From positions 47 to 64,046 of the forward strand of contig JAKFFM010000048.1 of the NCBI GenBank assembly GCA_036675075.1: a stretch of DNA of 64,000 nucleotides. The letters run 5' to 3'. Below, one piece after another: positions 17,725 through 63,405 of this stretch (the stretch's first letter is position 1; each line of letters begins with the position of its first letter). Both the position numbers and the translations under genes were made by a program. Origin of the DNA: Bacteroidota bacterium (GTDB taxonomy: Bacteria > Bacteroidota > Bacteroidia > JAKFFM01). The notes under the pieces are model-generated. The model was not told the DNA's origin. It made no database searches and saw only the letters and a program-made list of their open reading frames with translations.

Positions 17725-17744
17725 TAATTTCCCTAAATTTATAT

Positions 17745-27700: not shown

Positions 27701-28165
27701 TTGAACAAGATGGCAGGAACATATTCACAACTTCACATTCAGCTCATTTTAGTTGTAAAGAGAAGACAACGATTAATAAAAAAGGAGTGGAAAGAAAATC
27801 TGTTCCGGTTTATGAATACGCTTATCCAATGTAACAATGCGAAACCAATTATTATAAACGGAGTAGAAGATCATGTTCATTTACTCATCGGAATCAGGCC
27901 GGTAGTAAAGATCTCCGAGCTTGCCCGACTGATTAAGACCAGCTCAACCAACTTTATCAACGACATCATCAAACCAGAAAAGAAATTCACCTGGCAGGAT
28001 GGCTACGCCGTCTTCTCATATAGCAAATCCGATTTACCCCGCCTCATCCGCTATATCGAAAACCAGGAAGAACACCATCGGAAAAAAGATTTAAAAGCGG
28101 AATACAAGCAGCTCCTCATCAAGCACCAGGTCGAGTTCGATCCAAAATACCTCATCGACGAATAA
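27701..28165 (+). CDS. IS200/IS605-family HUH tyrosine transposase homologue, REP-associated tyrosine transposase (RAYT)-like
   Basis: HUH motif VEDHVHLLIGI, catalytic Tyr motif RLIRYIENQEEHH, ~150 aa. No tnpB partner. Followed by an array of palindrome-containing repeats. Confidence 0.75.
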   Translation: MNKMAGTYSQLHIQLILVVKRRQRLIKKEWKENLFRFMNTLIQCNNAKPIIINGVEDHVHLLIGIRPVVKISELARLIKTSSTNFINDIIKPEKKFTWQDGYAVFSYSKSDLPRLIRYIENQEEHHRKKDLKAEYKQLLIKHQVEFDPKYLIDE

Positions 28166-29307: not shown

Positions 29308-29736
29308 TTAATCGCGGAATAAATCGATCAGCAGGCTAAATGTATCAAGTGATGACTCCTTGCTGTCATGCTTGTCGAAATCAAGCGGCTTTAAGATATA
29401 TCCGGAAATACCCAGCTGCTGTGCGGCTATTTTATCATACTCCTCCTCAGAGGTTGTCATGATAAAGATCTTGATATGATTAAACGTAAAGTAGCTTCTG
29501 ATGATCCTGAGAAACTCAAGTCCATTCATCTTAGGCATGTTTATATCGAGAAGTATGATGTCAGGATTGATCTTCACTCCTCCAGGTGCATTACCATTCA
29601 GCAGTGAGAGTGCATCCACGCCGTTGTGCGCGACATGCAGTGTACAATTGACCTTTAGCTTTTTAAGCGCCCGTTCAACGCTCATCACATCCAGGTAATC
29701 ATCTTCAACAAGTAAAATCGTCTTATGCTTCATCAA
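29308..29736 (-). CDS. Stand-alone response-regulator receiver (CheY-like) protein
   Basis: ILLVEDDYLDVMSVERAL...DIILLDINMPKMNGLEFLRIIR...IFIMTTSEE...K, with Asp, Thr and Lys in the canonical positions and no output domain. Confidence 0.8.
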   Translation of the reverse strand: MMKHKTILLVEDDYLDVMSVERALKKLKVNCTLHVAHNGVDALSLLNGNAPGGVKINPDIILLDINMPKMNGLEFLRIIRSYFTFNHIKIFIMTTSEEEYDKIAAQQLGISGYILKPLDFDKHDSKESSLDTFSLLIDLFRD

Positions 29737-45267: not shown

Positions 45268-46032
45268 ATGACAGAAGAGAAAGCAGAAAAGAATTTTATA
45301 TACGGGATCAGGGCGGTGATCGAAGCAGTCCGTGAGGGAAAAGACATCGACAAGCTGATGGTGCAGGAAGGCATCGCAGGTAACCTGTTCAATGAATTAA
45401 AGAACATCTGCAAGGAACACAGGGTGCCCTACCAGTTTGTTCCGGCGCAAAAGCTGAACAGAATCACGAGATCGAATCACCAGGGAGTGATCGCGTTTAT
45501 TTCAGAGATCACGTTTGATGATATTGAGAGCGTGCTTCAGGGAATTTTCGAAAGCGGAAAAACACCTCTGCTGATGATCCTTGACAGGATAACTGACGTT
45601 CGGAATTTTGGAGCGATCTGCAGAACAGCGGAATGCGCAGGTGTGCAGGCGATCATACTTCCTTCAAGAGGCGCTGCGCAGATCAATGCGGATGCCGTGA
45701 AAACATCAGCAGGCGCAATCCATAAGCTGCCACTTTGCAGAAGCTCAAACCTGAAAGAAACGATCTACTACCTCAAAGACAGCGGAGTTCAGATCGTAGG
45801 CTGCACTGAAAAAACGAATCATCTTTATACTACTGTTGATATGACAACTCCCACAGCGATCGTGATGGGATCTGAAGAAAACGGCATCTCATCGGAATAC
45901 CTAAAGCTGTGTGACAAGAAAGCAAAGCTGCCGTTATTGGGAACCATTGAATCACTCAATGTTTCGGTTTCAGCGGGTATTATTCTTTACGAAGCCATCA
46001 GGCAAAGATCGGCTGAGAACTCAGATCTTTAA
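45268..46032 (+). CDS. rlmB: 23S rRNA (guanosine-2'-O)-methyltransferase RlmB (SpoU/TrmH family)
   Basis: NFIYGIRAVIEAV (L30e-like N-terminal region) and SPOUT motifs LDRITDVRNFGAICRTAECAGVQAIILP and IVMGSEENGIS. Confidence 0.8.
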   Translation: MTEEKAEKNFIYGIRAVIEAVREGKDIDKLMVQEGIAGNLFNELKNICKEHRVPYQFVPAQKLNRITRSNHQGVIAFISEITFDDIESVLQGIFESGKTPLLMILDRITDVRNFGAICRTAECAGVQAIILPSRGAAQINADAVKTSAGAIHKLPLCRSSNLKETIYYLKDSGVQIVGCTEKTNHLYTTVDMTTPTAIVMGSEENGISSEYLKLCDKKAKLPLLGTIESLNVSVSAGIILYEAIRQRSAENSDL

Positions 46033-47946
46033 TCCGATCAGACATACATCATCTGTTTGTTCAAGCTCACCTTTCCAATCGTTGAACATCGATGTGATCC
46101 TTTCAGACTGATCAGCAAGCGAAAGCGCTGAATGATCATACAGGAATTTATAAAAACGACGGGCAAGAAATTTCTTTCCTCCTGCTAACCTTGCAGCTTC
46201 ATCAGTGCCTCCAAACTGATCTACAAGACCATCGGAATACATATACACACAATCGCCTTTTTTCAGCGCAATTGTGGTTGTTGTAAAGCTCTTTTCATTT
46301 GATTTGAATCCTCCGATTGAATTCTTATCAGGTTCAAACTCTTTGATCTGCCCTTCAGAAAAAACAAGCAATGGCCTGTTTCCTCCGGCATAGCTTAATG
46401 TAAAGCTGGCAGGATCATAATAGCATAACGCGATGTCCATTCCATCCCTGGAAGCAGAATCCTGGCGATATTGCTTCAACATGGTACGAACCTTTTCATC
46501 AAGCTCATTCAGCAACCTGCCCGGATCCGTGATCATCTTTTCAATAACCAATTGATTCAATACCGTATTACCTATCATGCTCATGAATGCGCCAGGCACA
46601 CCATGTCCTGTGCAGTCTGCAAGCACAATGATGCACGGTGAATTTTCATGATGCTGTTCAATTCTGTGAAACCAATAAAAATCTCCACTTACAATATTCC
46701 GTGGCTGAAAGAACACGAAGGCCTCACCAAATGACCGCTGAATATCCCTGGTATCCGGAAGCATCGATTGCTGGATGAGCTGCGCATAATTTATACTGTC
46801 AGTGATCTCCTTGTTCTTTTCTTCAACTTCATCATTCAGCTTTTTAAGCTCCACATTCCGCAGGCGATGGATCTCCGCTTCATGCCTTACCGTTTCAAGC
46901 TGATGAAGGAGCTGCATATTGCCGATCTTCTTTCGGGTTTCTTCTTCAGAAACTTCACGCAGCAACGCATTCAGATTTTTCTGATGTTCATATGCCTTTC
47001 TGAAATCGCCCTTCTCACAGAACACCGCAGCAAGCGTATCGTAAACTTCAATAAGATCGTCACGCAGGTTTAGCTCTGTAAAGATCACCGATGCGGCATT
47101 CAGCATTTCAACCGCATCATTGAATCGGCCCGTCTTTAAATAGATCTTGCCAAGGCCAAGCATGCACAAACCTTCACCTGAAGCGTTGGATTTTTTATGG
47201 TATATACCTAGTGCGTGAAGCTGGTATTCCTCCGCTTTTTGAAAATCACCAAGATTCAGGAAACATTCTCCAAGGTTATTATAGCTGACGGCAAGGCCGT
47301 GCTCATCATTAATCTCCTTTTTGATGACGATGCTTTCCTGGAATGTCATCACGGCAGCTTCATAATCACCTTTCATCAGGTTAACAGAAGCAATGTTATT
47401 GATGATCGCCGCTTTCCCCAGTGCATCGTTATTGGCGATCATCTCAGCCAATCCTTTGTTGTAGTATTTCAGTGTATTGACATAATCCTTCAGTCCGGAA
47501 TAAACATTACCCAGGTTGATGTAAGATGCGGCGATGCCAGGACGGTCGTTTCCTGCTTCCCTTTTCTGAAGGGCTTTGAGGTGAACCATGATCGCGTTCT
47601 CGTAATCTCCAAGTCTGTAATAATTTATCCCGAGTGTATTGAAAACACTAGCCTCGCCAATCTGATCATTGATCTTTTCAAACAATGAGAGTGCTTCATA
47701 GGCATATTTGCAGGATTCGTCATACTTTGCTTTCTGCTGATGAATGAAGGCTGTGTTACGCAAGCTGTATGCAATTCCTTTATCATAGGAAAGCGCATGT
47801 GACAGCTTCAACGCTTCATCAGTGAGCGCGTGCATCTTATGAAGATCCTTGTTCCGGTGATCCCAGGCAAGCAGGTAAAGCTGATCACATCGCTCATGAT
47901 CAGTGGCTGTTTTAAGCTTCACTTCCCGCTCTTCCATCATGCTCAT
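46021..47946 (-). CDS. Soluble TPR-repeat plus SpoIIE/PP2C phosphatase protein
   Basis: About 8 TPR units (e.g. NLGNVYSGLKDYVNTLKYY), a coiled-coil linker with KNKEITDSINYAQLIQQS, and PP2C motifs FVFFQPRNIVSGDFYW, LADCTGHGVPGAFMS, DGMDIALC and YSDGLVDQFGG. No signal peptide or TM helix. Confidence 0.8.
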   Translation of the reverse strand: MSMMEEREVKLKTATDHERCDQLYLLAWDHRNKDLHKMHALTDEALKLSHALSYDKGIAYSLRNTAFIHQQKAKYDESCKYAYEALSLFEKINDQIGEASVFNTLGINYYRLGDYENAIMVHLKALQKREAGNDRPGIAASYINLGNVYSGLKDYVNTLKYYNKGLAEMIANNDALGKAAIINNIASVNLMKGDYEAAVMTFQESIVIKKEINDEHGLAVSYNNLGECFLNLGDFQKAEEYQLHALGIYHKKSNASGEGLCMLGLGKIYLKTGRFNDAVEMLNAASVIFTELNLRDDLIEVYDTLAAVFCEKGDFRKAYEHQKNLNALLREVSEEETRKKIGNMQLLHQLETVRHEAEIHRLRNVELKKLNDEVEEKNKEITDSINYAQLIQQSMLPDTRDIQRSFGEAFVFFQPRNIVSGDFYWFHRIEQHHENSPCIIVLADCTGHGVPGAFMSMIGNTVLNQLVIEKMITDPGRLLNELDEKVRTMLKQYRQDSASRDGMDIALCYYDPASFTLSYAGGNRPLLVFSEGQIKEFEPDKNSIGGFKSNEKSFTTTTIALKKGDCVYMYSDGLVDQFGGTDEAARLAGGKKFLARRFYKFLYDHSALSLADQSERITSMFNDWKGELEQTDDVCLIGLKI

Positions 47947-48618: not shown

Positions 48619-51600
48619 TTACCTGGCAATCACAACCCTGTGCACCGTACTGTTCACATCACTTTCAATATGGATGAAGTACACTCCGGCCTCAAGGTGC
48701 TGTACCGGAATGACCTTTCTGTACATTCCTGAAACAGATTCTGTCTTCACCGGAATCACTAATCTTCCATGCATGTCGTAAACAGACACTGACACTTCAT
48801 GACAGCTTTCACATTGTCCATCGATCGTTACGCTGGCAGATGCAGGGTTTGGATAGATCACGAACAGCTCTGAACTGTTCATCAGTTCCCTTACACCAAT
48901 TGCCGCACTGTCAAGGTCACCTTCGAACGTGATAAGGTCACCGCCTTTACCCGTGATATAACCACGGCTTGTACGATATGTCGCGTTGGTATTGTCATTC
49001 GTGCTGCCTTTTGAATACCTGCCCCATGACTGGCCTCTGTTGGTTGTTCTGTAGATCACACCACTGTTGGATGCAGCCCATGCCGTATCACCGGTACGTG
49101 AAACTGCCACACTGCTGAAGCTGACATCAACGCCTGCAAGTGTTACATTCCATGTAGTGCCTCCATCGACTGAAAGCAGCACAATTCCATTTTCAGCAGC
49201 GATGTATCCGGTTAAGGTATCGGCAAACGTCACCTGCTTCAGGTTGTTTGTTACACCTGGATTAACCGTGTTCCATGTGCTACCGTAATCTGTAGTTCTC
49301 AAAACTGTCCCGTTATCACCTGCTGCTGTTGCCTTTCCTGTACCTGAGATTGCGACAGACCTTAGGTTTGCTGAAGTGCCTGATGTAGCGTTAGTCCATG
49401 AAGTTCCATTCACTGTCAGCACCTTTCCATTTGAACCCACAGCATAGCCTCGTGTGTTTGTCCGCTGAACACCAATGGAATTGATCGTTTCAGTGGTTCC
49501 CGTTGTCATGGAAGACCAGCTTTGTCCACCATTCACTGATTTCAGAATAGCTCCATTCGGCCCTGTAACATACACATTGGATGCGTTGATCCACAATGCG
49601 CTTGTAAGGCCTGCAACCCCCGTAGGATAAGCATTCCAGGAATCACCGCCATTGAATGTGACCAGGCAGTTTCCATCCATTGTGGAGATGCATCCAGTGG
49701 TATCATTCGAGAAGGATATACCTGTGATATCTGAAACGGTATTTGTATTGATTGGCACATTAGGAAGAAGTCTTTCCACACGAACATAAAATGGCTTGGT
49801 CACTGTCAGTGCACAACCATTGACATTCACAGCTTGCAGAGAAACTGTTTTATATCCTATGTTGTTATATGTATGCGATGGTGACTGAACTGTTGATGTA
49901 TTGCCATCACCAAAATCCCATAGATAACTCTGGGCAGGTGCACCAGTGAAGGTAAAATTGACAAGTCCGTCGGGCAGGTATTTATTCAGATCATTTCCCG
50001 AAAAATTAAACACAGGGCTATTCAATGTGAGCGTATCAGACAATGTTCCTATTGCAGGAAGATCATCACTCACAACTCTTATCCTGAACAAATTTCCATT
50101 CGTGATGTAAGCCGGGATCACGCAGGTTACATATCCTGAAGCGGGTGATGCATTGGAACCAATCACCTTTGGATAGGCAAAACTTCCAAGGCTGTCAGAA
50201 ATCTGAGCGGTGAAAATATTGCCAGAATTATATACACCTGTTGCTGTATAATAAACTTTAATCGTGTCCTGCTTGCAAAACACGGATGGAGTGATTGAAT
50301 CCGTTGTGATCACATTATTGTTCGGAGGTGAAGTAATGATCGCGAAAACTGAATCACTCTGATCTGACACTGTCAAAGGCCCTGTTGAGCTAACCCTTAC
50401 AAGGCATGTTGGAGAGATCGTTGAAGGAACATACCAGTAAATAAAGTTATCTGTAACATTGTTTGCGATGCTGATCCAGTTCACTCCGTTATCAATCGAA
50501 TAGCTCACATCAACCGCAGGAATGTTATTGCTGTTCCAGGTGATCGAATGGTAACTGCCCGCATACCAGCTTTCTCCCCCATTCGGTGAAGTCACAGTCA
50601 CCGAAGGTGTTGAGAGGGCAATGGTAAATGTTGTATCAGAAACATCTTTCACGGTAGCATTCGCAGCATCGCTGATCCTTACTCTCGCATTAAGTGAAGG
50701 TGTAGCTGGGACATTCCAATAGTAGAATCCATTTGATGATGGTGTAGATGCAGTGATCGTCTGCCATAGCAGGTTATCAAGAGTGTACTCGATCTTTACA
50801 TTATTTACCGCTGTCGATGTCCAGTTGATATAATAAGAATTTCCTGTATAAAATGTTTCTCCTCCGTTAGGTGTGATCACCTGCAACGAAGCGACAGATG
50901 GTGTAATGGAAAAATTTGCTGCGCTTTTGGATGTCAGTGCAGAATTCAATGTCGATGTTACCCGAATCTTGCATGTGCTTGAATTGATGTTCGCAGGCAC
51001 ATTCCAGTAATAATAGTCATAGTTTGTAAGACCTGGATGTATAGTCGTCCATGAGGATTCGTTATCGGTGGTGTATTCTAGCTTCACATGCAGGATCCCG
51101 TTAGAGCTCCAGGTAATGTAATAAGCAGAACCTGCGACCAGTGTTTCACCTCCCACAGGTGCTGTTAATGTGATGGATGGACCAGAAATAGTGAATGAAT
51201 TATCACTCACATCATTAACAGAAGGATTTCCAATTTCAGAGATCCTGACCTTGCATGTACCAACCGCATTTAAAGGCACACTCCAGTTATAATACCCTGA
51301 AAGCGCACTCACCGATGATACGATGGTATTCCAGGTCAGGCCGTTGTCTTTGGTGTATTCGATCTTTACATTGGTGATCGTATTGCTTTCCCAGGTGATC
51401 GTCTTTGTTGTATTCACAGACCATACTTCACCTCCGTTAGGAGAGAGCACTTTGACAGATGCCTGTGGAATCACGAACAGGCTGTCGCTTACATCCGACA
51501 ATGTGGAGTTTGCCGCGTCAGATATCTTAACCATGCATTGTGTTGCCGGTGTAAAAGGAACGGTCCACTGAAATGCTCCGTTTGCCGCCGGAGTGCTTGG

Positions 51601-53781
51601 AGTGAGGATATTCCAGCTACCTCCATTGTTCAGGGTGTATTCGATCTTCACATTCTGAACACTCGGGCTCACCCATTGAATATAATGTGAAGAGCCTCCG
51701 CCCCATCGTTCTCCGCCATTAGGAACAGTGACAGCAATCGCTGGTTGCGGAATGGTAAACACATTAGGGCTTTGGGAAACGATCTGTGTATTGAGGTTAT
51801 CTGTTAACCTGACAAGACATTTCGGAGAAGGTGTATTCGGAACGGTCCAGTAATAGTATCCGGTAGGACCGTCTGCACTGTTATCTATCAGGTTCCAGCT
51901 TACACCGTTGTTGGTTGAATATTCAATCGTCACCTCACTGACGCTTGATGAACCCCAGCTGATATAACGCGATGTACCTACACTCCAGGACTCACCTCCA
52001 ACAGGTGATGTAATTGAAAGCGAAGGCATCGGAATAGTGAATACCGCATTGCTCACATCATACACAAGGTTGCTGGCAACATCCGTTACACGCACTAAGC
52101 ATGAAGTGGATGGCGTATAAGGAACATTCCATAAATAATATCCAATGGATCCGTTCACATTGTTCGCAATCAGGTTCCAGCTTGAACCATTGTCAGCGGA
52201 GTATTCGATCTTCACAGATGCCACACTTGGTGCACTCCAATAGATGTAGTGATTTGTGAAGGCGCTCCATGACTCTCCACCATTCGGAGTAGTCACTTCA
52301 ATTGATGGGGCAGGGATCGTCCAGACTGCATCGCTGATATCAAAGAGTGAAGGATTACCGGTCTGGCTTACCTTCATCAGGCAGGTAGTTGAATACGTTG
52401 CAGGAACAGTCCAGTAATAGTATCCACTGAAAGCACTTATAGAATCAGCGATCAGAACCCAGTTCAGCCCGTTATCAAAGGAATAGTGAAGATCAACTGA
52501 ATCAACAGAAGCTGAGGTCCAGTAGATGTATTTATTTGTTCCTGCACCCCAAACATCGAAGCCATTAGGCTGATCAACTTCCAGAGATGGAGCAGGAATG
52601 GTAAATGGATCATCGCTTACATCAAACAACCCTGGATCAGCCGAAGAACTAACTCTTACACGACACTGATTCGAGTACATGTTCGGCACATTCCAATAAT
52701 AATAGCCAATGTTTGACTGATTAGTAACGATGGAAGTCCACGTAAGACCATTATCGATTGAAAGATCAATGTCCACATTTGTAAAGCCATTTCCGTTCCA
52801 TGTGATGTAATGGTTTGATCCTGCATTCCAGATCTCGAATCCATCAGGATCGGTGACCTCGATGGTAGGTCCAACGATCGTAAACACCGCGATGCTTGTA
52901 TCACCTACCGCAGGGTTCGAAGCATCCGTGGCACGGACAAGGCATTTCGTTGACGGCGTATTCGGAACTGACCACAGGTAATACTGAGATGCGGCTGATG
53001 TTGAGCTGATGATGGTATTCCATGTTGATCCGCTGTCAGTTGAATATTCGAGCTTTACATTCTGTACGCTTTCACTGTCCCAGATAATGTATTGATTTGT
53101 AGCATATCCCCAGTTCTCTCCTCCGTCAGGATCCGTAAGGTCAACATACGGTGCAGGGATCGTAAAGGTGAAGTCACTGATATCGAACAATGCAGCATTC
53201 GATGCATCGCTGATCTTTACAAGCGCCTCACTTGAAATATCATTCGGGATCAGCCATGCATAATAACCGGTAGAACCATTGTAATTCGAAACTACAGGCT
53301 TCCATGTGCTACCATAATCCGTTGAATACTGAATGTTGATCTGTGGAACACCTGGAGAATCCCAGTAAATATATTGAGTAGTGCCTACTCCCCAGATCTC
53401 TCCGCCATTCGGATATTCAACAGTAATTGAGGGAGGATTAATTGTAAATGGAAAATCGCAAACATCATTGGTCGCGGAATTCGAAGCATCAGAAACTCTG
53501 ACCAGACAATTGGTTGATGGTGTGGAAGGAATGATCCAGTACATGTATCCTGTACCTGCATTCTCATTCGAACTAAGGACTGTCCATGATGATCCTCCAT
53601 TGACGGAGTATTCAACTTTAGCTGTCGTAAAACCTGTTGCTGTCCATTCTATATAGATTCCAGCATCAATGTTGAACGTTTCTCCTCCAACAGGTTCATC
53701 AACAGTGACTGTTTGAGAAAAGACAGAATGAAAACTAAAAAAGGCAATAAAAAAAACCAGTGTTCGTAATGATCCCAGCAT
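48619..53781 (-). CDS. Giant (1720 aa) T9SS cargo protein: ~14 tandem ~90-aa Kre9/KNH-like Ig domains, a BNR/Ycf48-like propeller region, and a T9SS C-terminal domain
   Basis: Repeat consensus GGE.W..G....I.W.S..V..VKIEYS.DNG.SW..I.........Y.W.VP...S..C.VRVSD..N....DVSD..FTI. Later GG(T/Q)SW Asp-box-like repeats. The C-terminus VIYPNPASASVTIDG...VYDMHGRLVIPVK...GVYFIHIESD is a T9SS CTD. Confidence 0.75.
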   Translation of the reverse strand: MLGSLRTLVFFIAFFSFHSVFSQTVTVDEPVGGETFNIDAGIYIEWTATGFTTAKVEYSVNGGSSWTVLSSNENAGTGYMYWIIPSTPSTNCLVRVSDASNSATNDVCDFPFTINPPSITVEYPNGGEIWGVGTTQYIYWDSPGVPQINIQYSTDYGSTWKPVVSNYNGSTGYYAWLIPNDISSEALVKISDASNAALFDISDFTFTIPAPYVDLTDPDGGENWGYATNQYIIWDSESVQNVKLEYSTDSGSTWNTIISSTSAASQYYLWSVPNTPSTKCLVRATDASNPAVGDTSIAVFTIVGPTIEVTDPDGFEIWNAGSNHYITWNGNGFTNVDIDLSIDNGLTWTSIVTNQSNIGYYYWNVPNMYSNQCRVRVSSSADPGLFDVSDDPFTIPAPSLEVDQPNGFDVWGAGTNKYIYWTSASVDSVDLHYSFDNGLNWVLIADSISAFSGYYYWTVPATYSTTCLMKVSQTGNPSLFDISDAVWTIPAPSIEVTTPNGGESWSAFTNHYIYWSAPSVASVKIEYSADNGSSWNLIANNVNGSIGYYLWNVPYTPSTSCLVRVTDVASNLVYDVSNAVFTIPMPSLSITSPVGGESWSVGTSRYISWGSSSVSEVTIEYSTNNGVSWNLIDNSADGPTGYYYWTVPNTPSPKCLVRLTDNLNTQIVSQSPNVFTIPQPAIAVTVPNGGERWGGGSSHYIQWVSPSVQNVKIEYTLNNGGSWNILTPSTPAANGAFQWTVPFTPATQCMVKISDAANSTLSDVSDSLFVIPQASVKVLSPNGGEVWSVNTTKTITWESNTITNVKIEYTKDNGLTWNTIVSSVSALSGYYNWSVPLNAVGTCKVRISEIGNPSVNDVSDNSFTISGPSITLTAPVGGETLVAGSAYYITWSSNGILHVKLEYTTDNESSWTTIHPGLTNYDYYYWNVPANINSSTCKIRVTSTLNSALTSKSAANFSITPSVASLQVITPNGGETFYTGNSYYINWTSTAVNNVKIEYTLDNLLWQTITASTPSSNGFYYWNVPATPSLNARVRISDAANATVKDVSDTTFTIALSTPSVTVTSPNGGESWYAGSYHSITWNSNNIPAVDVSYSIDNGVNWISIANNVTDNFIYWYVPSTISPTCLVRVSSTGPLTVSDQSDSVFAIITSPPNNNVITTDSITPSVFCKQDTIKVYYTATGVYNSGNIFTAQISDSLGSFAYPKVIGSNASPASGYVTCVIPAYITNGNLFRIRVVSDDLPAIGTLSDTLTLNSPVFNFSGNDLNKYLPDGLVNFTFTGAPAQSYLWDFGDGNTSTVQSPSHTYNNIGYKTVSLQAVNVNGCALTVTKPFYVRVERLLPNVPINTNTVSDITGISFSNDTTGCISTMDGNCLVTFNGGDSWNAYPTGVAGLTSALWINASNVYVTGPNGAILKSVNGGQSWSSMTTGTTETINSIGVQRTNTRGYAVGSNGKVLTVNGTSWTNATSGTSANLRSVAISGTGKATAAGDNGTVLRTTDYGSTWNTVNPGVTNNLKQVTFADTLTGYIAAENGIVLLSVDGGTTWNVTLAGVDVSFSSVAVSRTGDTAWAASNSGVIYRTTNRGQSWGRYSKGSTNDNTNATYRTSRGYITGKGGDLITFEGDLDSAAIGVRELMNSSELFVIYPNPASASVTIDGQCESCHEVSVSVYDMHGRLVIPVKTESVSGMYRKVIPVQHLEAGVYFIHIESDVNSTVHRVVIAR

Positions 53782-53916: not shown

Positions 53917-56900
53917 TCAGAGCCTTACTCCTATCACAAGGATGTCATCGACCTGTTCAAATTCGCCCTGCCAGCCAAGGAATGACGCAAGAAGCTGCTC
54001 TTTCTGTTCTTCAGGACTTTTATTGAAGATTGACTGAAGAAGATCCTTGAATTTCCTTGTCATGAACTTTTTACCATCCTGGCCTCCGAACTGGTCTGCA
54101 TAACCGTCAGATGCCATGTAAAATCCATCACCTTTATCGAGCTTAAAAAAATGCCTGGTAAATACTTTATCACCAGTATCTTGTAATCCTCCGATAGGAA
54201 CTTTATCTGCCTTGATTTCTTCCAGACTTCCCTGACGGATAAGATAGAGTGGCCTCATCGCAGCTGCGAATTCCAGTTCACGCGTTTCGGTGTTCAGGCG
54301 ACAAAGCGCGATGTCCATACCATCCCTGCTGTCATTCTGCTGATCCTGCTTGAGGGAGCTTCTGATCCGGATGTTCAGCTGGTTCAGAATAATGTCAGGA
54401 TGTGGCGTTTCAAGCTCAGCGACAATATCATTCAGCAAGGTGTGACCGATCATGCTCATGAATGCACCGGGTACACCATGTCCTGTGCAGTCAGCCGCTG
54501 CAATAAGCACCTCAGTTCCTCTCTGGTAGAACCAATAGAAGTCACCACTGACAATATCCCTTGGCTTGAACAGCACGAAAACTCCTGGTAGCTGGACCTT
54601 CAATTCCTCCACGACCGGAAGGATGGCCTGCTGGATCCTGCTCGCATAATTAATGCTGTCTGTGATGTCCTTATTTTTCTGGTCAACGATCAGCTTCTGA
54701 TTTTCAATCTCTTCCTTCTGCCTCACAACTTCCGCGGTACGTTCCTGCACCATCTGTTCGAGTACGATCTTGGCCTTTTTCAGTCTCCTGACACTTACCT
54801 GCACGACACCATAAACAAGGGCCAGGAATGCGATCACATAAACAATGTAGGCGTAGATGGTCCTATACCATGGAGGCAGAAGTTCAAATGTAAAAATGGA
54901 TTCTATGCTGACATTATCATAGATGTCCCGGGCCTGCAAATGCAGAACGTATTGGCCTTCCGGAAGGTTCGTGTACTGAGTCCTTGTTTCCTTTGACCAT
55001 TCCGTCCATTTCTTATCATATCCTTCGAGGTACCATCTGAAGACATTCTTTTTTTCATTGTCAAAAACCGGTGCAGCGAACTCCAGCTCGATGGAATTGT
55101 GCGAATAATCAAACTGCGGGTTGACAGGATAGCTGCTGTTATAGATAAACATCCGTCCATCCTGCATTTCACCGTTAAAAGCTCCCATGAAATAAACAGA
55201 GTCTTTACCCAATGTGATCTTACGAAAGAGCGGCGCGAAATTTTCATAAACAAAAGCCCGGGGTTGTTCATACCTGATCAATCCATCCGGCCCGCCAATC
55301 CATACGACTTCTTTTTCAGGGAAGATGCAATGGATCTCACTTTCAGAAAAATGCTTGAAAGGCTTTGAGAACCATTCGAACTTGCCAGCTGAGTTTCGAA
55401 TAGCAACACCTGTTTCCTTGATCGTTTCATTCGCAGTTGACATCCAGATCCTGTCTTCACCCTGTGGCTCAAATGCAAATATTTCCCTTGTACCATTCAC
55501 GCTGAGGCCTTTGAATCTTATATCAGGAACCAGTCTGCCCTGATTTACGTCGTAAACAAAGATGCCTTTCAGCGTGCTGATAATTACTCCGCCCTTATAT
55601 TGAAAGATGAAGTTGAAACGCGTGTCAGGTAATCCTTTTGAAGCATCAAGGTCTATGATACTTGCATTTTCCCATACGGATGACGCAGCCTGGTCGCGTA
55701 CGATATAACGTATTCCCTGGGTACGGGTACTGACAAACAAAGAGCCATCCTTGTCTTCACCCACAGTATTCACTTCAAGATCGATACCTTCCAGCAAGCC
55801 TTCATCCTGCCATCCTTTCGATGTTTTCCGTATTGCGGCGAGGCCATTGCTTGTTCCTATGAAGATTCTTGAAGGGTCGGTCACAGACGGAAACAGCTTG
55901 AATGCATTGTATTCCGCGATCATTTCAGGTTCTGTTTTACCACTCAGCAAAACACCATCGCCTGTTGCAGCAAGGAGCTTGTCATCAAAAACCAGAAGGT
56001 CACGAACCTGAGAAAAGATCCCCTGGTAAGGAGAAAAGCAGGTCGTTCCATCGCTTTCAGAATAAAATAGACCGGCGGTACCTGCAACATACAGTTTGTT
56101 GTTAAAGCGCAGAATATCCTGCACGGATCCTTTTAATCCGCTCAGGTCAGTGTAGAAACGCAGCGGCGAATTGATTTCAGCTCGTGCGATTCCATTGTCC
56201 ATGGCCATCCACAAACCATTTTGCCTGTCAACAAACAGGTATTTTATATTATCATCACGGAGTGCATTTTTTTTATTCAGCACACTCATGTACTTACCTG
56301 AAGCACCCAGAAAGCATACTCCACCACGTAGTGTCGCAAAAGCCACTGTGGTGTCATTGACTTTAACACCATGATATACCTGGTTTTCAAGAAGAAAGTC
56401 TTCTGCAGTGGAATTGAATTTTGTAAAAGCCATTGAAGAATCCTTTTGTGCAGGATCAAACAGGTACAAACCGTTTTCTCTTCCGGAAAGCAGGATGCGT
56501 CCACGTGAGTATGGAATCATTGCGTAGATCCTGTCGCTGGCGAGAAAGCCAGATCCATTCACGTAATCAAGCTTTCCCTTCCTCATGATCTTTAAGCCAA
56601 CGCCTCTGTCCATGATAAAAAGCTTACCGTTTACATGAAAGCTGAAGTGAAATGAATTTTCAGGTTTCCATGAAACAAGCGAGTCACTTTTCAGACAAAA
56701 AAGTGATTTAAATGTGCTGAAGTAAACACCCTCTGCAGTACAATAAACCTTCGCGACATCACCAAAATCCCTGTCATCAGGATGGAGCTTTGATACAAGA
56801 GATTTAAATACGGAGTTCCCATACCGGTCAGGTTCCATGTAGCCAAAATCCCCGACACCACCTGCATATAACTTACCCGTGCTGTCCACATCAAGAGAAC

Positions 56901-57150
56901 GAACAATGCTTTCGATGGAAAGCGCCGTCATGCGCCAGGTAACACCATCATACTCAAGGATTCCGGTTGAATTACCGAAATACATGACACCTCTTTTATC
57001 TTGTGTGATGCTCCAGTTATCAGTGCCACCAAGGTATTCTTTGGAACTATAATTGGTTATATAAGGTAAGCCGCAATCCTGCTGTGCGTAGAGCTTCAAC
57101 CCGAACAAGAAAAGTGAGGCAAAAAAAATGCAGCGCAGAAACATCTTCAT
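53917..57150 (-). CDS. Sensor phosphatase: two-component-regulator propeller (Y_Y_Y-type periplasmic beta-propeller) region, TM helix, SpoIIE/PP2C domain, 1077 aa
   Basis: Signal peptide. Long periplasmic region with repeated propeller-like blades (GGVCFL, GLWMAMDNGI...). Y-rich segment FRWYLEGYDKKWTEWSKETRTQYTNLPEGQY. TM helix IVYVIAFLALVYGVV. Linker KNKDITDSINYASRIQQA. PP2C motifs FVLFKPRDIVSGDFYW, AADCTGHGVPGAFMS, DGMDIALC and ASDGYADQFGG. Confidence 0.8.
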   Translation of the reverse strand: MKMFLRCIFFASLFLFGLKLYAQQDCGLPYITNYSSKEYLGGTDNWSITQDKRGVMYFGNSTGILEYDGVTWRMTALSIESIVRSLDVDSTGKLYAGGVGDFGYMEPDRYGNSVFKSLVSKLHPDDRDFGDVAKVYCTAEGVYFSTFKSLFCLKSDSLVSWKPENSFHFSFHVNGKLFIMDRGVGLKIMRKGKLDYVNGSGFLASDRIYAMIPYSRGRILLSGRENGLYLFDPAQKDSSMAFTKFNSTAEDFLLENQVYHGVKVNDTTVAFATLRGGVCFLGASGKYMSVLNKKNALRDDNIKYLFVDRQNGLWMAMDNGIARAEINSPLRFYTDLSGLKGSVQDILRFNNKLYVAGTAGLFYSESDGTTCFSPYQGIFSQVRDLLVFDDKLLAATGDGVLLSGKTEPEMIAEYNAFKLFPSVTDPSRIFIGTSNGLAAIRKTSKGWQDEGLLEGIDLEVNTVGEDKDGSLFVSTRTQGIRYIVRDQAASSVWENASIIDLDASKGLPDTRFNFIFQYKGGVIISTLKGIFVYDVNQGRLVPDIRFKGLSVNGTREIFAFEPQGEDRIWMSTANETIKETGVAIRNSAGKFEWFSKPFKHFSESEIHCIFPEKEVVWIGGPDGLIRYEQPRAFVYENFAPLFRKITLGKDSVYFMGAFNGEMQDGRMFIYNSSYPVNPQFDYSHNSIELEFAAPVFDNEKKNVFRWYLEGYDKKWTEWSKETRTQYTNLPEGQYVLHLQARDIYDNVSIESIFTFELLPPWYRTIYAYIVYVIAFLALVYGVVQVSVRRLKKAKIVLEQMVQERTAEVVRQKEEIENQKLIVDQKNKDITDSINYASRIQQAILPVVEELKVQLPGVFVLFKPRDIVSGDFYWFYQRGTEVLIAAADCTGHGVPGAFMSMIGHTLLNDIVAELETPHPDIILNQLNIRIRSSLKQDQQNDSRDGMDIALCRLNTETRELEFAAAMRPLYLIRQGSLEEIKADKVPIGGLQDTGDKVFTRHFFKLDKGDGFYMASDGYADQFGGQDGKKFMTRKFKDLLQSIFNKSPEEQKEQLLASFLGWQGEFEQVDDILVIGVRL

Positions 57151-57246: not shown

Positions 57247-57531
57247 ATGCCGCATATGTTAGCAAAGTTAAAAGGTGTTCGTCTGGAAGATGTGTATGAA
57301 GTTCTGGAACGGGATGCTGAAGCGCATGCGAAAGAAGGCATCTACCTGCAGCATTTATGGCAGAATGTTGATGATCAGGATGAAGTGCTGTTTTTATTCA
57401 GGGTAGATGATATAGAAAACGTAAAGAGTTTTATCAGCGAGGTTCATAGAAAAGCGTATGAAGAGAATCCTGATTCACATTTACCGCACATGACTTATCT
57501 GGAAGGCAAGGGTATTCTGTTTGGGTTGTGA
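57247..57531 (+). CDS. Hypothetical small protein (94 aa)
   Basis: ORF between two signalling genes. No motif recognised. Confidence 0.35.
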   Translation: MPHMLAKLKGVRLEDVYEVLERDAEAHAKEGIYLQHLWQNVDDQDEVLFLFRVDDIENVKSFISEVHRKAYEENPDSHLPHMTYLEGKGILFGL

Positions 57532-57627
57532 TGAACTGGTCGTTTAGAAACAATGATTGCCAGACCTGTCAAATTAAAAGGACAAAAAAACCCGCTCGTC
57601 AAATACAAGCCTTAATGAAGAAGATGA

Positions 57628-59100
57628 TCAACTATGAACCGGAAGGTAGATAGAAAAAGTAGATCCTTTGCCAACCTCGCTAACAACCTTTATTTCTCCT
57701 CCATGCTTATGAACGATTTGTTGGCTAATATAAAGGCCCATTCCTAGTCCTGAAACATGCAAAGCGTTAGTCACTCTATAAAATCTTTCAAACAATAAAT
57801 TCACTTCAGAAGATGGAATTCCTATTCCATAGTCAGATACTGAAATCACAACATAATGAGCATGTTTTTCTATTGCAACACTAATTTTCGACGAATCAGG
57901 AGAATATTTAATTCCATTATTCACAAGGTTTATGATAACCTGTTCCATTCTCATTCTATCCATCGAAACAACAACATCTTCTTTTAGTGTTTTAAGTTCT
58001 ATTTTATGGGTTTCGGAGAAAGTCTTTAAAGCTTCAATTGTATCAATCAAGAGACCATTTACAGAGGCCATCTCGAAACGAAACTGCATTTGATCAGCTT
58101 GAATTTTAGACACATCCAGAAGATCCTTAATTAATATCTCCAGCTTCTCTACCTGCTTATTCGTTTTATTAACGTATTTTCTGATTGTGTGATCTGAATA
58201 GTTTCTTAACAATAATTGTAAATATGCTTTTGTTGTAGTTAGCGGTGATTTTAACTCATGGCTGGCAATACTTAAAAATTCATCCATTTTGCTCACCAGA
58301 TGCTTTTGATTACTTATGCTTATTCCAACCCATAGCCATCGACTATCTCCAGATTCCTCCTCCTTATAAGGAATTGCTTTTACCAAATACCATTCATACT
58401 TACCTATTGCGTTCAATAAACGAACTTCTTTTTCTAAAGGCACTATTCGCGACAATGACCGCTTCCAGTTCAACAATAGTAAAAACCTGTGAGCAGGAAA
58501 TACAAAATTGAAAAAATCATATATTGAATTTGCTTCATAAGTTCCAAAGTATTTCAGTGCCTTAATATTTGCAAAGTGAAGTGATCCTTTATGATCGGTA
58601 GTCACGACGAGTTCAGGTAGCAGATCAGTTATGAGTTTAAATCTTTGTCTCTCAGTTTCTGCCTTTTTCTTCTCATATAACAACTGGTTCTCATATTTCT
58701 TCCTGTCTGAAATATCTGTTATCGTAGCCCTAAAATTCAAAGGGTGATCGAATTTATCTTTAATAGTTAATGCGTTAACAAGGACAGGCTTTATACTCTT
58801 ATCACGACAGCTTAGCTCAAAGTTCACTTCATTTACAAAACCCTGCATCATCAGCAATGGAAAGACATGGTTTTGATAGTAAATTTTCCCACCAATTGTA
58901 AAGAGGTCAGAAAATTTCAATCGATTTAGTACCTCTTCAATTCTCAGATCCAACCACGATAACAACCGTTTGTTTATTCGAATTATAGTACCATCTGGCA
59001 GAAAAGACAAATACCCGACAGGAGCGTTGTTATACAACTCCTCGGCATCTTCCAATAATTGATATTGCGTTTCACTTATATAATGAAAGCCATCTTTCAC
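57628..59100 (-). CDS. PAS-domain sensor histidine kinase (cytoplasmic, orphan), translationally coupled to the upstream RsbQ-like hydrolase
   Basis: N-terminal PAS-like segments. H-box FLSIASHELKSPLTT. HATPase motifs INLVNNGIKYSPD, VSDYGIGIPSSEVNLLFERFYRV and GLGMGLYISQQIVHKHGGEIKVVSEVGKGSTFSIYLP. Its start (59100) overlaps the hydrolase stop (59097-59099). Confidence 0.8.
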   Translation of the reverse strand: MKDGFHYISETQYQLLEDAEELYNNAPVGYLSFLPDGTIIRINKRLLSWLDLRIEEVLNRLKFSDLFTIGGKIYYQNHVFPLLMMQGFVNEVNFELSCRDKSIKPVLVNALTIKDKFDHPLNFRATITDISDRKKYENQLLYEKKKAETERQRFKLITDLLPELVVTTDHKGSLHFANIKALKYFGTYEANSIYDFFNFVFPAHRFLLLLNWKRSLSRIVPLEKEVRLLNAIGKYEWYLVKAIPYKEEESGDSRWLWVGISISNQKHLVSKMDEFLSIASHELKSPLTTTKAYLQLLLRNYSDHTIRKYVNKTNKQVEKLEILIKDLLDVSKIQADQMQFRFEMASVNGLLIDTIEALKTFSETHKIELKTLKEDVVVSMDRMRMEQVIINLVNNGIKYSPDSSKISVAIEKHAHYVVISVSDYGIGIPSSEVNLLFERFYRVTNALHVSGLGMGLYISQQIVHKHGGEIKVVSEVGKGSTFSIYLPVHS

Positions 59101-59900
59101 GTAGCCTTAATTTTAAGGTAATTTTTAATGACTTTAACAACTTCTTCAGGAGCACTAAGGTGAGGGCAATGTCCTGTTGCTTCGAGGACTTCGAGAGTAT
59201 GATCGGGGATCTGCGAATCTATATAATGACCTACCTCCATCGGTGCAATAACATCATCCTTGCATTGTAGTGATAATGTCGGCACCTTAAGCTTTATTAG
59301 ATCTTCTCGATTATCTGAAAAGAATGTAACCTTAGCAAATTCTTTTGCAATGGTTGGGTTTGTTGCGCAAAAGCTATTCGTTAATTCTTCACCCAATTGT
59401 GGTCGATCAGAATTTCCCATTATTGCTGGTGCCATAGTTTCAGCCCAACCGAGGTAGTTATTATCCATTGTATTCATTATGCCCTCGAGATCACTTATTT
59501 CAAAACCGCCAATGTATTCCCCATCATTCAGGTACCTTGCTGAAGGGCCAATAAAGATCATGTACGAAAACAAATCAGGTCTTTCAATTGCTGCAAGTGT
59601 ACCGATCATTGCACTTACAGAATGACCAATAAAAATTGATTTTTTTAGCTGTAGTTCGTCCAATATCTCAATAACGTCTTTAGCATAACCACGAAGAGTT
59701 GAATATCTTTTTGAGTTATAAGCAGAAAGATCTGAATGTCCGGCCCCAACATAATCAAAAAGAATAATTTTATAATGATCTTGAAATTCAGGCACAATGA
59801 ATCGCCACATATTTTGATCGCATCCAAAGCCATGTGCGAAAACCATTGTCTGAGATCCACTACCCAGAACCCTTACATTGTTACGTTTTAAAATTTCCAT
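59097..59900 (-). CDS. RsbQ-like alpha/beta-hydrolase (RsbQ/KAI2/D14 clade)
   Basis: Collinear by eye with Bacillus subtilis RsbQ over the whole length: RNNVRVLGSGSQTMVFAHGFGCDQNMWRFIVPEF, ILFDYVGAGHSDL, nucleophile elbow IGHSVSAMIG, CKDDVIAP (Asp) and GHCPHLSAPEEV (His). Confidence 0.75.
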   Translation of the reverse strand: MEILKRNNVRVLGSGSQTMVFAHGFGCDQNMWRFIVPEFQDHYKIILFDYVGAGHSDLSAYNSKRYSTLRGYAKDVIEILDELQLKKSIFIGHSVSAMIGTLAAIERPDLFSYMIFIGPSARYLNDGEYIGGFEISDLEGIMNTMDNNYLGWAETMAPAIMGNSDRPQLGEELTNSFCATNPTIAKEFAKVTFFSDNREDLIKLKVPTLSLQCKDDVIAPMEVGHYIDSQIPDHTLEVLEATGHCPHLSAPEEVVKVIKNYLKIKAT

Positions 59901-60336: not shown

Positions 60337-62151
60337 ATGGCTTACAGAAATCTTGAAGATGCGGTTCTCGACCTCGAGCGCACAAATCAGCTGATCAGAA
60401 TAAAAGAAGAAGTTGACCCCAACCTCGAAATGGCTGCGATACATCTTCGTGTATTCGATCATAACGGACCAGCGATCCTCTTTGAAAATATTAAAGGATG
60501 CAGGTACAGGGCTGTATCAAATCTTTTCGGTACAAAGGAACGGGCCTTATTCCTTTTTCGTGACACCATTGAAAAGGTAAGGTCAATGACAGCCCTCAGG
60601 AATGATCCAATGCAGGCCATGAAGCATCCTTTCAAAGCACTTGCATCCCTTCCATCAGCCTTTCATGCGTTGCCTAAAAAAGCTCATGCACATTTTGACA
60701 AGATCAGACTTTCGGATCTTCCGCAGATAAAATGCTGGCCTGATGACGGAGGTCCTTTCGTTACCTTGCCTCTGGTCTATACAGAAGATCCCGAAAAGCC
60801 CGGGATAAAGAATTCCAACCTTGGAATGTACAGGATCCAGCTGGCCGGAAATGAATACCTCCCGGATAAGGAAGCGGGTCTTCACTACCAGCTTCACCGC
60901 GGTATTGGCATCCATCAGACCAACGCCGACAGACGCAATCAGCCTCTGAAGGTCTCCGTTTTTTCAGGTGGTACGCCCGCTCTGATCTTTTCAGGTGTCA
61001 TGCCATTGCCTGAAGGCCTTTCGGAACTCTACTTTGCAGGAATGCTTGGAAACAGAAGATTTAGATACTTCTATGAAAACGGTCACCTCATTTCATCTGA
61101 CTCGGATTTTGTCATCACCGGAGAGATCATTAAAGGGATGAACAAACCTGAAGGTCCGTTTGGTGATCACTTTGGATATTATAGCCTGAAGCATGACTTC
61201 CCTGTGATGCATGTGACTGGTGTGTATGCAAAGAAAAATGCGATCTGGCCTTTCACCGTCGTTGGCCGTCCTCCTCAGGAAGACACCCTGTTCGGCATGC
61301 TGGTTCACGAACTTGCAGGTGACTCTTTAACCTATGAAATTCCCGGACTTCATGAAGTGAACGCTGTTGATGCTGCCGGAGTTCATCCTTTGCTCCTGGC
61401 AACAGGAAGCGAACGTTACACTCCTTATCTTCAGGAAACGCGGCCACAGGAACTGCTTACGATTGCGAATCATATCCTGGGAACAGGACAGCTGTCTCTG
61501 GCAAAGTATCTTTTCATCACAAACAGAGAAGATGATCCATCAATAGACACAAAAAATATTCCCGCTTACTTTAAACACCTTCTTGAGCGGATCGATTTTA
61601 AGCGTGACATTCATTTTCACACAAACACAACCATCGATACGCTTGATTATTCAGGTTCAGGATTGAACTCAGGATCCAAAGTAGTGTTCGCAGCAGCAGG
61701 TAAGAAACGAAGGACATTAGGCACAGAAAAACCTTCAATGGATCTACCAGCAATGTTCGACCAGGCGCAGGTAGTCATGCCAGGAGTGTTGTCGGTATCA
61801 GGCCCGCCTTTCAGGTCGTACCAGGAAGCAGGAAATGAGATCGAAGTTCTTGCAGATAAGCTGAAAGACCTTGACAAGTTTCCTCTTATCATACTTACCG
61901 ATGATGCGTCTTTCGTCGCGGAGAATCTGAATAATTTTCTTTGGGTGACATTTACGCGAAGTAATCCTTCACATGATATTCATGGCGCAAAATCCTTCAT
62001 CAGGCATAAACACTGGGGATGTGAAGGGCCACTGATCATTGATGCCAGAATAAAACCGCATCATGCACCACCGCTTATAAAAGATCCACAGATTGAACAG
62101 CGTGTTGATAAGCTTGGTGAACGTGGCAGATCATTGCACGGGATCATCTGA
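60337..62151 (+). CDS. UbiD-family decarboxylase (3-polyprenyl-4-hydroxybenzoate carboxy-lyase-like; menaquinone/ubiquinone biosynthesis decarboxylase homologue)
   Basis: 604 aa. DGGPFVTLPLVYTEDPE...NLGMYRIQL and GGTPALIFSG... are UbiD-family prFMN-binding region signatures. Confidence 0.7.
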   Translation: MAYRNLEDAVLDLERTNQLIRIKEEVDPNLEMAAIHLRVFDHNGPAILFENIKGCRYRAVSNLFGTKERALFLFRDTIEKVRSMTALRNDPMQAMKHPFKALASLPSAFHALPKKAHAHFDKIRLSDLPQIKCWPDDGGPFVTLPLVYTEDPEKPGIKNSNLGMYRIQLAGNEYLPDKEAGLHYQLHRGIGIHQTNADRRNQPLKVSVFSGGTPALIFSGVMPLPEGLSELYFAGMLGNRRFRYFYENGHLISSDSDFVITGEIIKGMNKPEGPFGDHFGYYSLKHDFPVMHVTGVYAKKNAIWPFTVVGRPPQEDTLFGMLVHELAGDSLTYEIPGLHEVNAVDAAGVHPLLLATGSERYTPYLQETRPQELLTIANHILGTGQLSLAKYLFITNREDDPSIDTKNIPAYFKHLLERIDFKRDIHFHTNTTIDTLDYSGSGLNSGSKVVFAAAGKKRRTLGTEKPSMDLPAMFDQAQVVMPGVLSVSGPPFRSYQEAGNEIEVLADKLKDLDKFPLIILTDDASFVAENLNNFLWVTFTRSNPSHDIHGAKSFIRHKHWGCEGPLIIDARIKPHHAPPLIKDPQIEQRVDKLGERGRSLHGII

Positions 62152-62232: not shown

Positions 62233-63405
62233 TCACGCCCCGTACCTGAATACGGCAGCGATATCACTTGATTTAACAGGCATCCTGAAGTCTGATGTGA
62301 CATACACTTCGCCACCATGAAGTATGGTTTCAACAGCGGCTTTATTGGCGAGGTCTTCATCGCCTTTCATGTAATGTTTATGCAAGACCACCTGGTTGTT
62401 CTTCTCATCAAAGTAACCCCAGATATGGCAGTTCTCCTTCAGGAAAAGCTTATCCACACGTGAAAACACACTTGCGGATACAATTTCATCGATCTCAGAA
62501 GATGTCTTTTTTGTTGCTGAAAGATTTTCAAATGTTTCTTCAGCGGTGATCCTTGTTTTATCGAAAATAGGCCGTACCAGCGCCCATGCATCTGCATGCA
62601 ATTCTTCTTCGCTTGTATATTCCTTGTTACCTGTGAGCGCTTCCGGATGAATAAACGGATAGGTACAAAGCTTTCTGAACATGGCTACAATGTAATCCAC
62701 TCCGCAGAGCACCAGTGGTATTGAGCTTGATCCGATCACTTTCATAATTCCATCATTCACCTGATGAAGGAATAATTCCACATCATCCTTCCTCACCTCT
62801 TCACCGCCCTGGTTTCCAAAATACATATCGGGAACATTCGATCCGCCATTCGATTTAAATCGAGATTGTTTTTCATGAACATCAAACCTCGTTGTTTCAT
62901 CAATGCCTGAGGGAACAAGTCCTTCCACAGCAATAGGTGAAAGATCGTAATGCGTTCCTTTGTATAATGACACACCATTCTTGGCAAGTGACAACACGAA
63001 AAATTCACTCTTGTCAGTTACAACAGGTATGAGCGGAGTCAGGTAGAACCCTTTGCCTACATAGGTAAATGCTTCTACATTGAATGGCAGCCTGTAATGC
63101 TCAAATGTACCTTCACTCATAAACGCGACAAAGCCATGTATCTGCTTCTTCCAGAAGAGTTTGTCTTTTATAAGATCACGGGCACCAGAAAGAATGGATG
63201 TTAACTCATTCTTTGACATGCCATTTTCCTTTAAAAGGATTTCCGCTTTTTTCACTTCATCTTTAAACATCAGGAGGTCAAGGCTTTCATTCACTTCAAT
63301 TCCTGACTTATGCGTTGGAATATATATGGAAACACATAAATGATCCCGTACACCACCTAATCTTCTGAAATCATCGTGTTTGAATTTATCTGTCCAGCCT
63401 TTCAT
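62233..63405 (-). CDS. Hypothetical protein with eRF1/Pelota-like features (bacterial eRF1-like family candidate)
   Basis: 390 aa. Central FGNQGGEE (GGQ-loop-like) and C-terminal AAVETILHGGEVYVTSD, resembling the AVETLL motif of eRF1/Dom34 domain 3. No other family recognised. Confidence 0.4.
   Translation of the reverse strand: MKGWTDKFKHDDFRRLGGVRDHLCVSIYIPTHKSGIEVNESLDLLMFKDEVKKAEILLKENGMSKNELTSILSGARDLIKDKLFWKKQIHGFVAFMSEGTFEHYRLPFNVEAFTYVGKGFYLTPLIPVVTDKSEFFVLSLAKNGVSLYKGTHYDLSPIAVEGLVPSGIDETTRFDVHEKQSRFKSNGGSNVPDMYFGNQGGEEVRKDDVELFLHQVNDGIMKVIGSSSIPLVLCGVDYIVAMFRKLCTYPFIHPEALTGNKEYTSEEELHADAWALVRPIFDKTRITAEETFENLSATKKTSSEIDEIVSASVFSRVDKLFLKENCHIWGYFDEKNNQVVLHKHYMKGDEDLANKAAVETILHGGEVYVTSDFRMPVKSSDIAAVFRYGA

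Follow-up and report, generated by a model that had tools for sequence, protein, structure and literature searches.

Gene organization of the locus

The window analysed here, a 64,000-nucleotide stretch of contig JAKFFM010000048.1 from the genome assembly GCA_036675075.1 of a Bacteroidota bacterium, carries on its minus strand two contiguous, co-oriented open reading frames (ORFs), at the positions given in a preliminary description of this DNA, which encode an alpha/beta-hydrolase of the RsbQ type and a soluble PAS sensor histidine kinase (Table 1). Our analysis of both products, of their surroundings and of related loci indicates that this two-gene operon is very probably a cytoplasmic, two-protein sensor of a small molecule, of the type published as the RsbQ-PAS bipartite module, with a histidine kinase as the output.

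The two genes overlap by 4 bp at the junction GCT ACG TGA AAG. While the overlap itself agrees with the preliminary description, the kinase start codon within it is GTG and not the ATG proposed there; an ATG that lies close by is out of frame for the kinase. The kinase gene called independently on a public Logan contig, where the hydrolase is identical, also encodes this 490-aa product. The kinase and its closest relatives are conserved from residues 15-16 onwards, where they share the motif L-x-E-[ES]-A-E-[DE]-L-Y, and therefore translation may alternatively start at codon 16, a TTG, with a spacer of 41 nt after the hydrolase gene. The operon likely ends at a terminator-like hairpin with a T-run behind the kinase gene; such sites are no more numerous in the region than expected by chance, and only the position of this one is suggestive. 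A scan for sigma-70 promoters, with a model that is ill-suited to Bacteroidota, gave matches at the chance level.

Table 1. Genes, domains and sites of the RsbQ-PAS-kinase locus and of the remaining part of the window.
Feature	Position	Strand	Remarks
RsbQ-type alpha/beta-hydrolase gene	59097..59900	-	267 aa, ATG start; Pfam Abhydrolase_1/6
Catalytic Ser94 codon (GHSVS nucleophile elbow)	59619..59621	-	aligns with RsbQ Ser96
Catalytic Asp216 codon	59253..59255	-	aligns with RsbQ Asp219
Catalytic His244 codon	59169..59171	-	aligns with RsbQ His247
GTGA overlap of kinase GTG start and hydrolase TGA stop	59097..59100	-	4 bp, read from sequence
Soluble sensor histidine kinase gene	57628..59100	-	490 aa
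RsbP-type PAS1, residues 24-132, presumed hydrolase docking site	58705..59031	-	BLASTP to RsbP
DIT-like site of PAS1, residues 129-132	58705..58716	-	
Putative helical linker, opening with R133-x-x-Y-E137-x-x-L-L	58651..58704	-	
Second, heterologous PAS, residues 152-258	58327..58647	-	weak Pfam PAS_8/PAS_3
HisKA	58096..58287	-	Pfam E=8e-14; phospho-acceptor His281 codon 58258..58260
HATPase_c	57637..57960	-	Pfam E=2.7e-28
Terminator-like hairpin and T-run	57584..57610	-	18 nt past kinase stop
ORF convergent with the kinase gene	57247..57531	+	94 aa
SpoIIE/PP2C sensor phosphatase gene	53917..57150	-	1077 aa, Reg_prop/Y_Y_Y input
SpoIIE/PP2C sensor phosphatase gene	46021..47946	-	TPR input
SpoIIE/PP2C sensor phosphatase gene	25552..27549	+	TPR input
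Single-domain receiver gene	29308..29736	-	
CHASE3-HAMP-HisKA kinase gene	29743..31212	-	
IS200-like Y1 transposase gene	27701..28165	+	Pfam Y1_Tnp E=6e-24
UbiD-family decarboxylase gene	60337..62151	+	
Bacterial eRF1-like protein gene	62233..63405	-	390 aa
Sorting-domain protein gene	2614..4164		
Sorting-domain protein gene	17694..19121		
Sorting-domain protein gene	32552..35434		
Sorting-domain protein gene	37630..41211		
Sorting-domain protein gene	48619..53781		

The hydrolase

The amino acid sequence of the hydrolase was compared with all PDB chains by the use of phmmer. Its best match is RsbQ of B. subtilis (1wom; E=7.4e-99, 334 bits, residues 2-264), followed by an Oleispira protein (3qvm; 2e-78) and by about 50 chains of plant KAI2, D14, HTL and DAD2 proteins (6e-67 to 6.5e-51), of which the best KAI2-family one scores 229 bits. 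The first unrelated hydrolase appears in this ranking only at 1.5e-13, which leaves a gap of 85 orders of magnitude between it and RsbQ. In the global alignment with RsbQ, 138 of 263 residues are identical (52%), with one 1-residue indel in total. The motifs GHSVSAM, DDVIAP and GHCPH are all present in the hydrolase, and its catalytic triad aligns with that of RsbQ, in agreement with the full-length likeness noted earlier. The lid region (RsbQ residues 130-200) is identical at 34 of 71 positions, again with one 1-residue indel, and a four-helix lid is predicted from this similarity. The residues F25, Y123, I141 and F194 correspond to F27, Y125, L144 and F197 of RsbQ, which were singled out as pocket residues by Melville et al. 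A single-sequence AlphaFold2 model of the hydrolase was too poor to be used (mean predicted local distance difference test score 43.8, predicted template modelling score 0.44); the fold is taken as fixed because the protein is 52% identical to one of known crystal structure.

Judged by its sequence, the hydrolase belongs to the RsbQ/KAI2/D14 (DKR) clade, as had been proposed. Ordinary metabolic esterases or lactonases of the 3-oxoadipate enol-lactonase or BioH type do provide its best NCBIfam matches, the PcaD and BioH models, and Pfam assigns it to generic Abhydrolase families only, but all the NCBIfam scores are far under the curated cut-offs (100 bits vs. 256 for PcaD).

The kinase and its N-terminal PAS domain

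According to Pfam, the kinase comprises PAS_9 (residues 28-132), a weak second PAS (152-258), HisKA (272-335) and HATPase_c (381-488). No hydrophobic segment was found in it (the maximum Kyte-Doolittle mean over 19 residues is 1.12), and it is reasonable to regard this PAS-PAS-HisKA-HATPase_c protein, which has no predicted transmembrane segment, as cytoplasmic, in line with the preliminary description. The H-box and HATPase_c are intact, His281 is nearly invariant in the multiple alignment (A1), and HATPase_c resembles the structures of HK853 and WalK, with E values of 1e-37 to 1e-32.

The N-terminal-most domain, PAS1, is the one that relates the kinase to RsbP. Residues 24-148 align with residues 6-127 of B. 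subtilis RsbP (reference sequence P0003, named by NCBI/UniRef) with 31% identity and a pairwise BLASTP E value of 3e-17, which is not directly comparable with the cut-off of e<3e-18 that was applied to this class of PAS domains in 2011 in PSI-BLAST searches against nr. The residues that distinguish the class are, in RsbP numbering, C10, L13, L48, Q53, F55, C56, Y59, E72 and P86, plus P62 (PMC3183031). PAS1 fits eight of the nine signature positions: L31 (L13), F67 (L48), K72 (Q53, where the class has a basic residue), Y74 (F55), Y75 (C56), H78 (Y59, where the class has His or Tyr), E91 (E72) and P105 (P86). The equivalent of Pro62, P81, is present as well. The RsbP linker segment RKRNEYENELL is the counterpart of R133xxYE137xxLL in the kinase. 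H78, P81, E91, R133 and E137 are invariant in 75 of 75 relatives. PAS1 is a genuine homologue of the PAS domain in RsbP. In B. subtilis, this domain is both necessary and sufficient for RsbQ binding, and the alanine changes of F55 and Y59 abolish RsbQ binding and signalling (PMC3183031).

The second PAS is more isolated in its sequence: none of the ORFs at the 80 related loci described below contains a relative of it at E<1e-2. Its identity to the second PAS of locus L083 (2053..3662) is 31%; this locus also holds the closest PAS1 relative (53% identity), located behind an RsbQ-like gene. At L083, PAS1 and PAS2 are encoded in separate frames and are not followed by a kinase domain, which may reflect a decayed copy or an assembly error.

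Conservation of the gene pair

Relatives of the hydrolase were found in at least 595 species when one genome per GTDB species was scanned. The survey of gene neighbourhoods concerned the best 80 of these at least 595 loci, at which the hydrolases are 55-63% identical to that of the window and which belong to Bacteroidota, Gemmatimonadota, Acidobacteriota, Alphaproteobacteria, Verrucomicrobiota, Myxococcota and Actinomycetota. The best matches are in metagenome-assembled genomes of Bacteroidota; the nearest hydrolase among these 80 species-representative loci is just 63% identical, and therefore the lineage of the window copy is poorly represented.

In 79 of the 80 loci a gene for an RsbP-type PAS protein is directly downstream of the RsbQ gene. 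Thus, the two genes are conserved as neighbours, which the preliminary description had left to be checked. At 75 loci the next gene opens with a domain that matches PAS1 (E values from 1e-11 to 5e-42), and overlaps of 1 bp or 4 bp between the two genes were found at 26 of the 80. The closest relatives of PAS1 were also sought in a set of 5.8 billion proteins by a word-indexed search, which returned two partial proteins, both encoded directly behind an alpha/beta-hydrolase gene. Two loci, L017 and L046, were considered as possible in-frame RsbQ-PAS fusions and rejected; their long ORFs are in another frame than the hydrolase, and are therefore mere upstream-extended ORFs in high-GC DNA.

The proteins encoded downstream of the hydrolases contain HATPase_c in 69 of 80 cases, HisKA in 57, a C-terminal receiver in six (hybrid kinases) and SpoIIE in two, both from Actinomycetota. 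Hence, a kinase is the majority form of the output among the closest relatives, 69 of 80 vs. two phosphatases. A kinase rather than a phosphatase as the output, the novelty of which had been implied, is thus the usual state in these relatives, and the histidine-kinase outputs of the RsbQ-PAS module in Gram-negative bacteria were already defined in 2011 (PMC3183031) and restated since (PMC12143880).

Response regulator genes

The previously noted absence of an adjacent cognate response regulator is borne out by our search of the window. No receiver domain adjoins the pair, and the only one detected in the 64 kb with a CheY-seeded jackhmmer search is a single-domain protein encoded beside a CHASE3-HAMP-HisKA kinase gene. 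The kinase of the pair is therefore an orphan. The receiver in question was considered as its partner and set aside: it is 28-40% identical to the adjacent receivers of the relatives, a level of generic similarity between receivers from which no inference was drawn.

At 25 of the 80 loci a small gene for a single-domain receiver is present within 300 bp, mostly in Chitinophagaceae and other Bacteroidota. In many of these bacteria, a receiver of about 130-150 aa is encoded directly after the RsbQ-PAS-kinase pair, which makes a three-gene unit (loci with the receiver just downstream are L001, L006, L007, L011, L018, L020, L021, L023, L025, L030, L033, L037, L038, L056 and L076). Such a receiver-containing unit is absent from the 2011 description of the module (PMC3183031).

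Proposed mechanism and alternative explanations

The homology of both proteins to RsbQ and RsbP, the intact catalytic motifs and the conserved, immediate adjacency of their genes are direct observations, and they fit best a sensor of the published bipartite type. According to the mechanism that we propose, the hydrolase, with its Ser94-Asp216-His244 triad, four-helix lid and small hydrophobic pocket, would bind and probably slowly hydrolyse a small hydrophobic ligand. It would dock on the outer side of the PAS1 F-alpha helix and on the start of the linker, presumably by means of Y74 and H78, the counterparts of those RsbP residues that are needed for RsbQ binding. The signal would then run through the conserved, presumably helical segment RxxYExxLL and the second PAS to the DHp helices of the dimeric HisKA/HATPase core, where it could set the autophosphorylation of His281 and the phosphotransfer to a response regulator encoded elsewhere. 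Where it concerns the contact of the two proteins, the sign of the regulation, the class of ligand and the downstream target, this proposal follows the B. subtilis work and the general knowledge of PAS kinases. An AlphaFold model published in 2025 places RsbQ at the PAS/linker interface (PMC12143880).

Several observations weigh against this interpretation. PAS1 has V28 at the position of the hPhG motif that is usually occupied by Cys (RsbP C10; Cys in 62 of 75 relatives). Moreover, it ends with T-D129-I130-S131-D-R-K, which resembles a DIT motif, while the RsbP-type PAS class was reported to be devoid of a C-terminal DIT motif (PMC3183031) and D[IVL][TS] occurs at the relevant columns in none of the 75 relatives. 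We treat the DIT-like motif as a variant and keep PAS1 in the class, because the features that define the class, an adjacent RsbQ gene and PAS homology, are both present. The second PAS lies between PAS1 and the kinase core, which makes the coupling less direct than in the typical relatives, PAS-coil-kinase proteins of some 400 aa. A small receiver gene adjoins the pair in about two thirds of the Bacteroidota relatives, and the window copy is without it. The kinase may start at the TTG at codon 16 instead of the GTG. Finally, the literature holds no experiment on the kinase-coupled module, and both the contact between the proteins and the sign of its effect are extrapolated from a Gram-positive phosphatase system.

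The first alternative to be considered is Model 1 of Nadezhdin et al., in which the PAS domain is the true sensor and the hydrolase, instead of being the receptor of the ligand, turns a precursor into a product or a cofactor that it hands to the PAS pocket. The authors of the 2011 study left both of their models open, mutations of the RsbQ catalytic triad give a null phenotype in B. subtilis, and both sides of F-alpha are conserved, the pocket-facing K72 and Y75 included. On the other hand, the alanine changes of the pocket-facing Q53 and C56 in RsbP are silent, while the outward-facing F55 and Y59 are essential; RsbQ, like KAI2 and D14, is destabilised and covalently modified by ligand, which is a receptor-like behaviour; and no PAS-bound ligand was found. 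We rate Model 1 as rather improbable, because of the silent substitutions in the pocket of RsbP and the lack of a PAS-bound ligand.

A sub-type of the proposed sensor has a small chance of being correct. In it, the RsbQ signal would be combined with a second input, by a PAS1 that has regained a DIT-type motif for the coupling of PAS to helix and by a heterologous PAS2 that has almost no relatives, in an orphan kinase that acts on a distant regulator and is conceivably tied to the SpoIIE-rich surroundings. If this were true, a stress network of Bacteroidota would be wired unlike both the phosphatase module of Bacillus and the common PAS-coil-kinase module.

It is doubtful in the extreme that the kinase feeds the nearby SpoIIE/PP2C phosphatases, in a kind of partner switching, rather than a classical response regulator. 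The presence of three genes for SpoIIE/PP2C sensor phosphatases within 35 kb was confirmed. One of them follows the kinase gene at a distance of 478 bp in the same orientation, no receiver gene adjoins the kinase, and a PP2C domain is what this input module drives in Gram-positive bacteria. However, this nearest SpoIIE gene is cut off from the kinase gene by a convergent ORF and by the terminator-like hairpin, none of the three SpoIIE proteins of the window has a receiver domain, and the H-box in the HisKA of the kinase is normal, so that transfer from His to Asp is implied. Furthermore, no SpoIIE gene was detected in the 6-kb flanks of any kinase-type relative, either with phmmer or with a four-sequence profile built from the three SpoIIE domains of the window and that of RsbP; the two matches of the profile are the relatives whose own output domain is SpoIIE. 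Thus, the suggested link to these phosphatases has no support from conservation, and we found no evidence that the SpoIIE genes of the window belong to the RsbQ-PAS-kinase system.

The idea that the hydrolase is an ordinary metabolic enzyme that shares a transcript with an unrelated kinase is hardly credible, in view of the full-length RsbQ match, lid included, and of the RsbP-type PAS gene that adjoins its relatives in at least seven phyla.

Other genes in the window

Three SpoIIE genes in 35 kb make an unusually dense set. The small ORF between the kinase gene and the nearest of them is convergent with the kinase gene and matches nothing in Pfam or NCBIfam; a similarly sized gene was called at the same place on the public Logan contig (L081). 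On the other side of the pair, divergent from the hydrolase gene, is a gene of the UbiD decarboxylase family, whose product fits best, under the cut-off, the model of the menaquinone decarboxylase of the futalosine pathway and has about 150 extra C-terminal residues past the Pfam domains. It is followed in the window by a gene for a protein of the bacterial eRF1-like group (baeRF family 7/3), with a sub-threshold NCBIfam match to 'ribosome hibernation factor'. The window also encodes an IS200-like transposase, a GWxTD protein and five large secreted proteins with C-terminal sorting domains of type IX secretion (Por_Secre_tail in four and CHU_C in one). These sorting domains, the GWxTD protein and the best hydrolase matches all agree with an origin of the window in Bacteroidota.

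Relation to known systems

The pairs of adjacent genes encoding RsbQ and an RsbP-type PAS were described by Nadezhdin, Brody and Price (PLoS One 2011; PMC3183031), who listed 45 of them and named them a bipartite sensing module. A 2025 eLife paper on RsbU restated that, in various phyla, kinases and cyclases are coupled to the module (PMC12143880). The window pair shares with the kinase-output modules of 2011 the RsbQ homologue immediately upstream on the same strand, the conserved, presumably helical segment after the PAS, the HisKA/HATPase output, the extra heterologous PAS (found in five of the 45 published module proteins) and the Gram-negative host of an environmental type. It differs from them in the D-I-S motif, in Val instead of the Cys of hPhG and in having no adjacent receiver gene. 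The pair is therefore a rediscovery of a published module with small local variations. Its description as uncharacterised holds with respect to experiments on the kinase-coupled form, but not with respect to the concept, which dates from 2011.

In comparison with RsbQ and RsbP of B. subtilis, the hydrolases are 52% and the PAS domains 31% identical, and the triad, the key pocket residues, the bicistronic arrangement and the RKxxYENxLL start of the linker are common to both systems. Unlike RsbP, the window protein has a histidine kinase instead of a PPM/PP2C phosphatase as the output and an extra PAS, and no RsbV, RsbW or sigma-B partner-switching genes were identified next to the pair. The plant KAI2 and D14 receptors belong to the same clade of hydrolases and have the same triad, lid and hydrophobic pocket, but signal via the F-box protein MAX2 and SMXL degradation and not via PAS. 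The LuxP-LuxQ system of Vibrio, which the 2011 authors used as a precedent for their Model 2 (PMC3183031), is no more than an analogy, in which the ligand is bound by a separate protein that docks on the PAS domains of a histidine kinase and changes its output. In contrast to the window pair, LuxP-LuxQ is periplasmic, LuxP is a periplasmic binding protein and not a hydrolase, and there is no homology between the two systems.

The possibility of a butenolide-like ligand, raised in the preliminary description, has precedents in the literature too. RsbQ of B. subtilis binds butenolides and hydrolyses GR24 and dGR24 with the formation of a His247 adduct (bioRxiv 2023.12.05.570042), and RsbQ of Stenotrophomonas (S. 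rhizophila) behaves likewise with butenolides (bioRxiv 2025.03.14.642314). No ligands other than butenolides have been demonstrated for the RsbQ proteins of bacteria. Neither of these two papers mentions PAS kinases, and our search for literature that combines RsbQ with Bacteroidota found nothing relevant.

The window copy is one more entry in the catalogue of such modules. Hundreds of species offer the same, and some of them are cultured; equivalent modules are present in the cultured genera Flavisolibacter, Segetibacter, Algoriphagus, Cesiribacter and Olleya. The kinase form is prevalent among the relatives of this hydrolase in soil and water bacteria, and a kinase output gives an easy in vitro read-out, autophosphorylation, for the screening of ligands. 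The question of the natural ligand of RsbQ extends to the origin of the ligand problem of plant KAI2.

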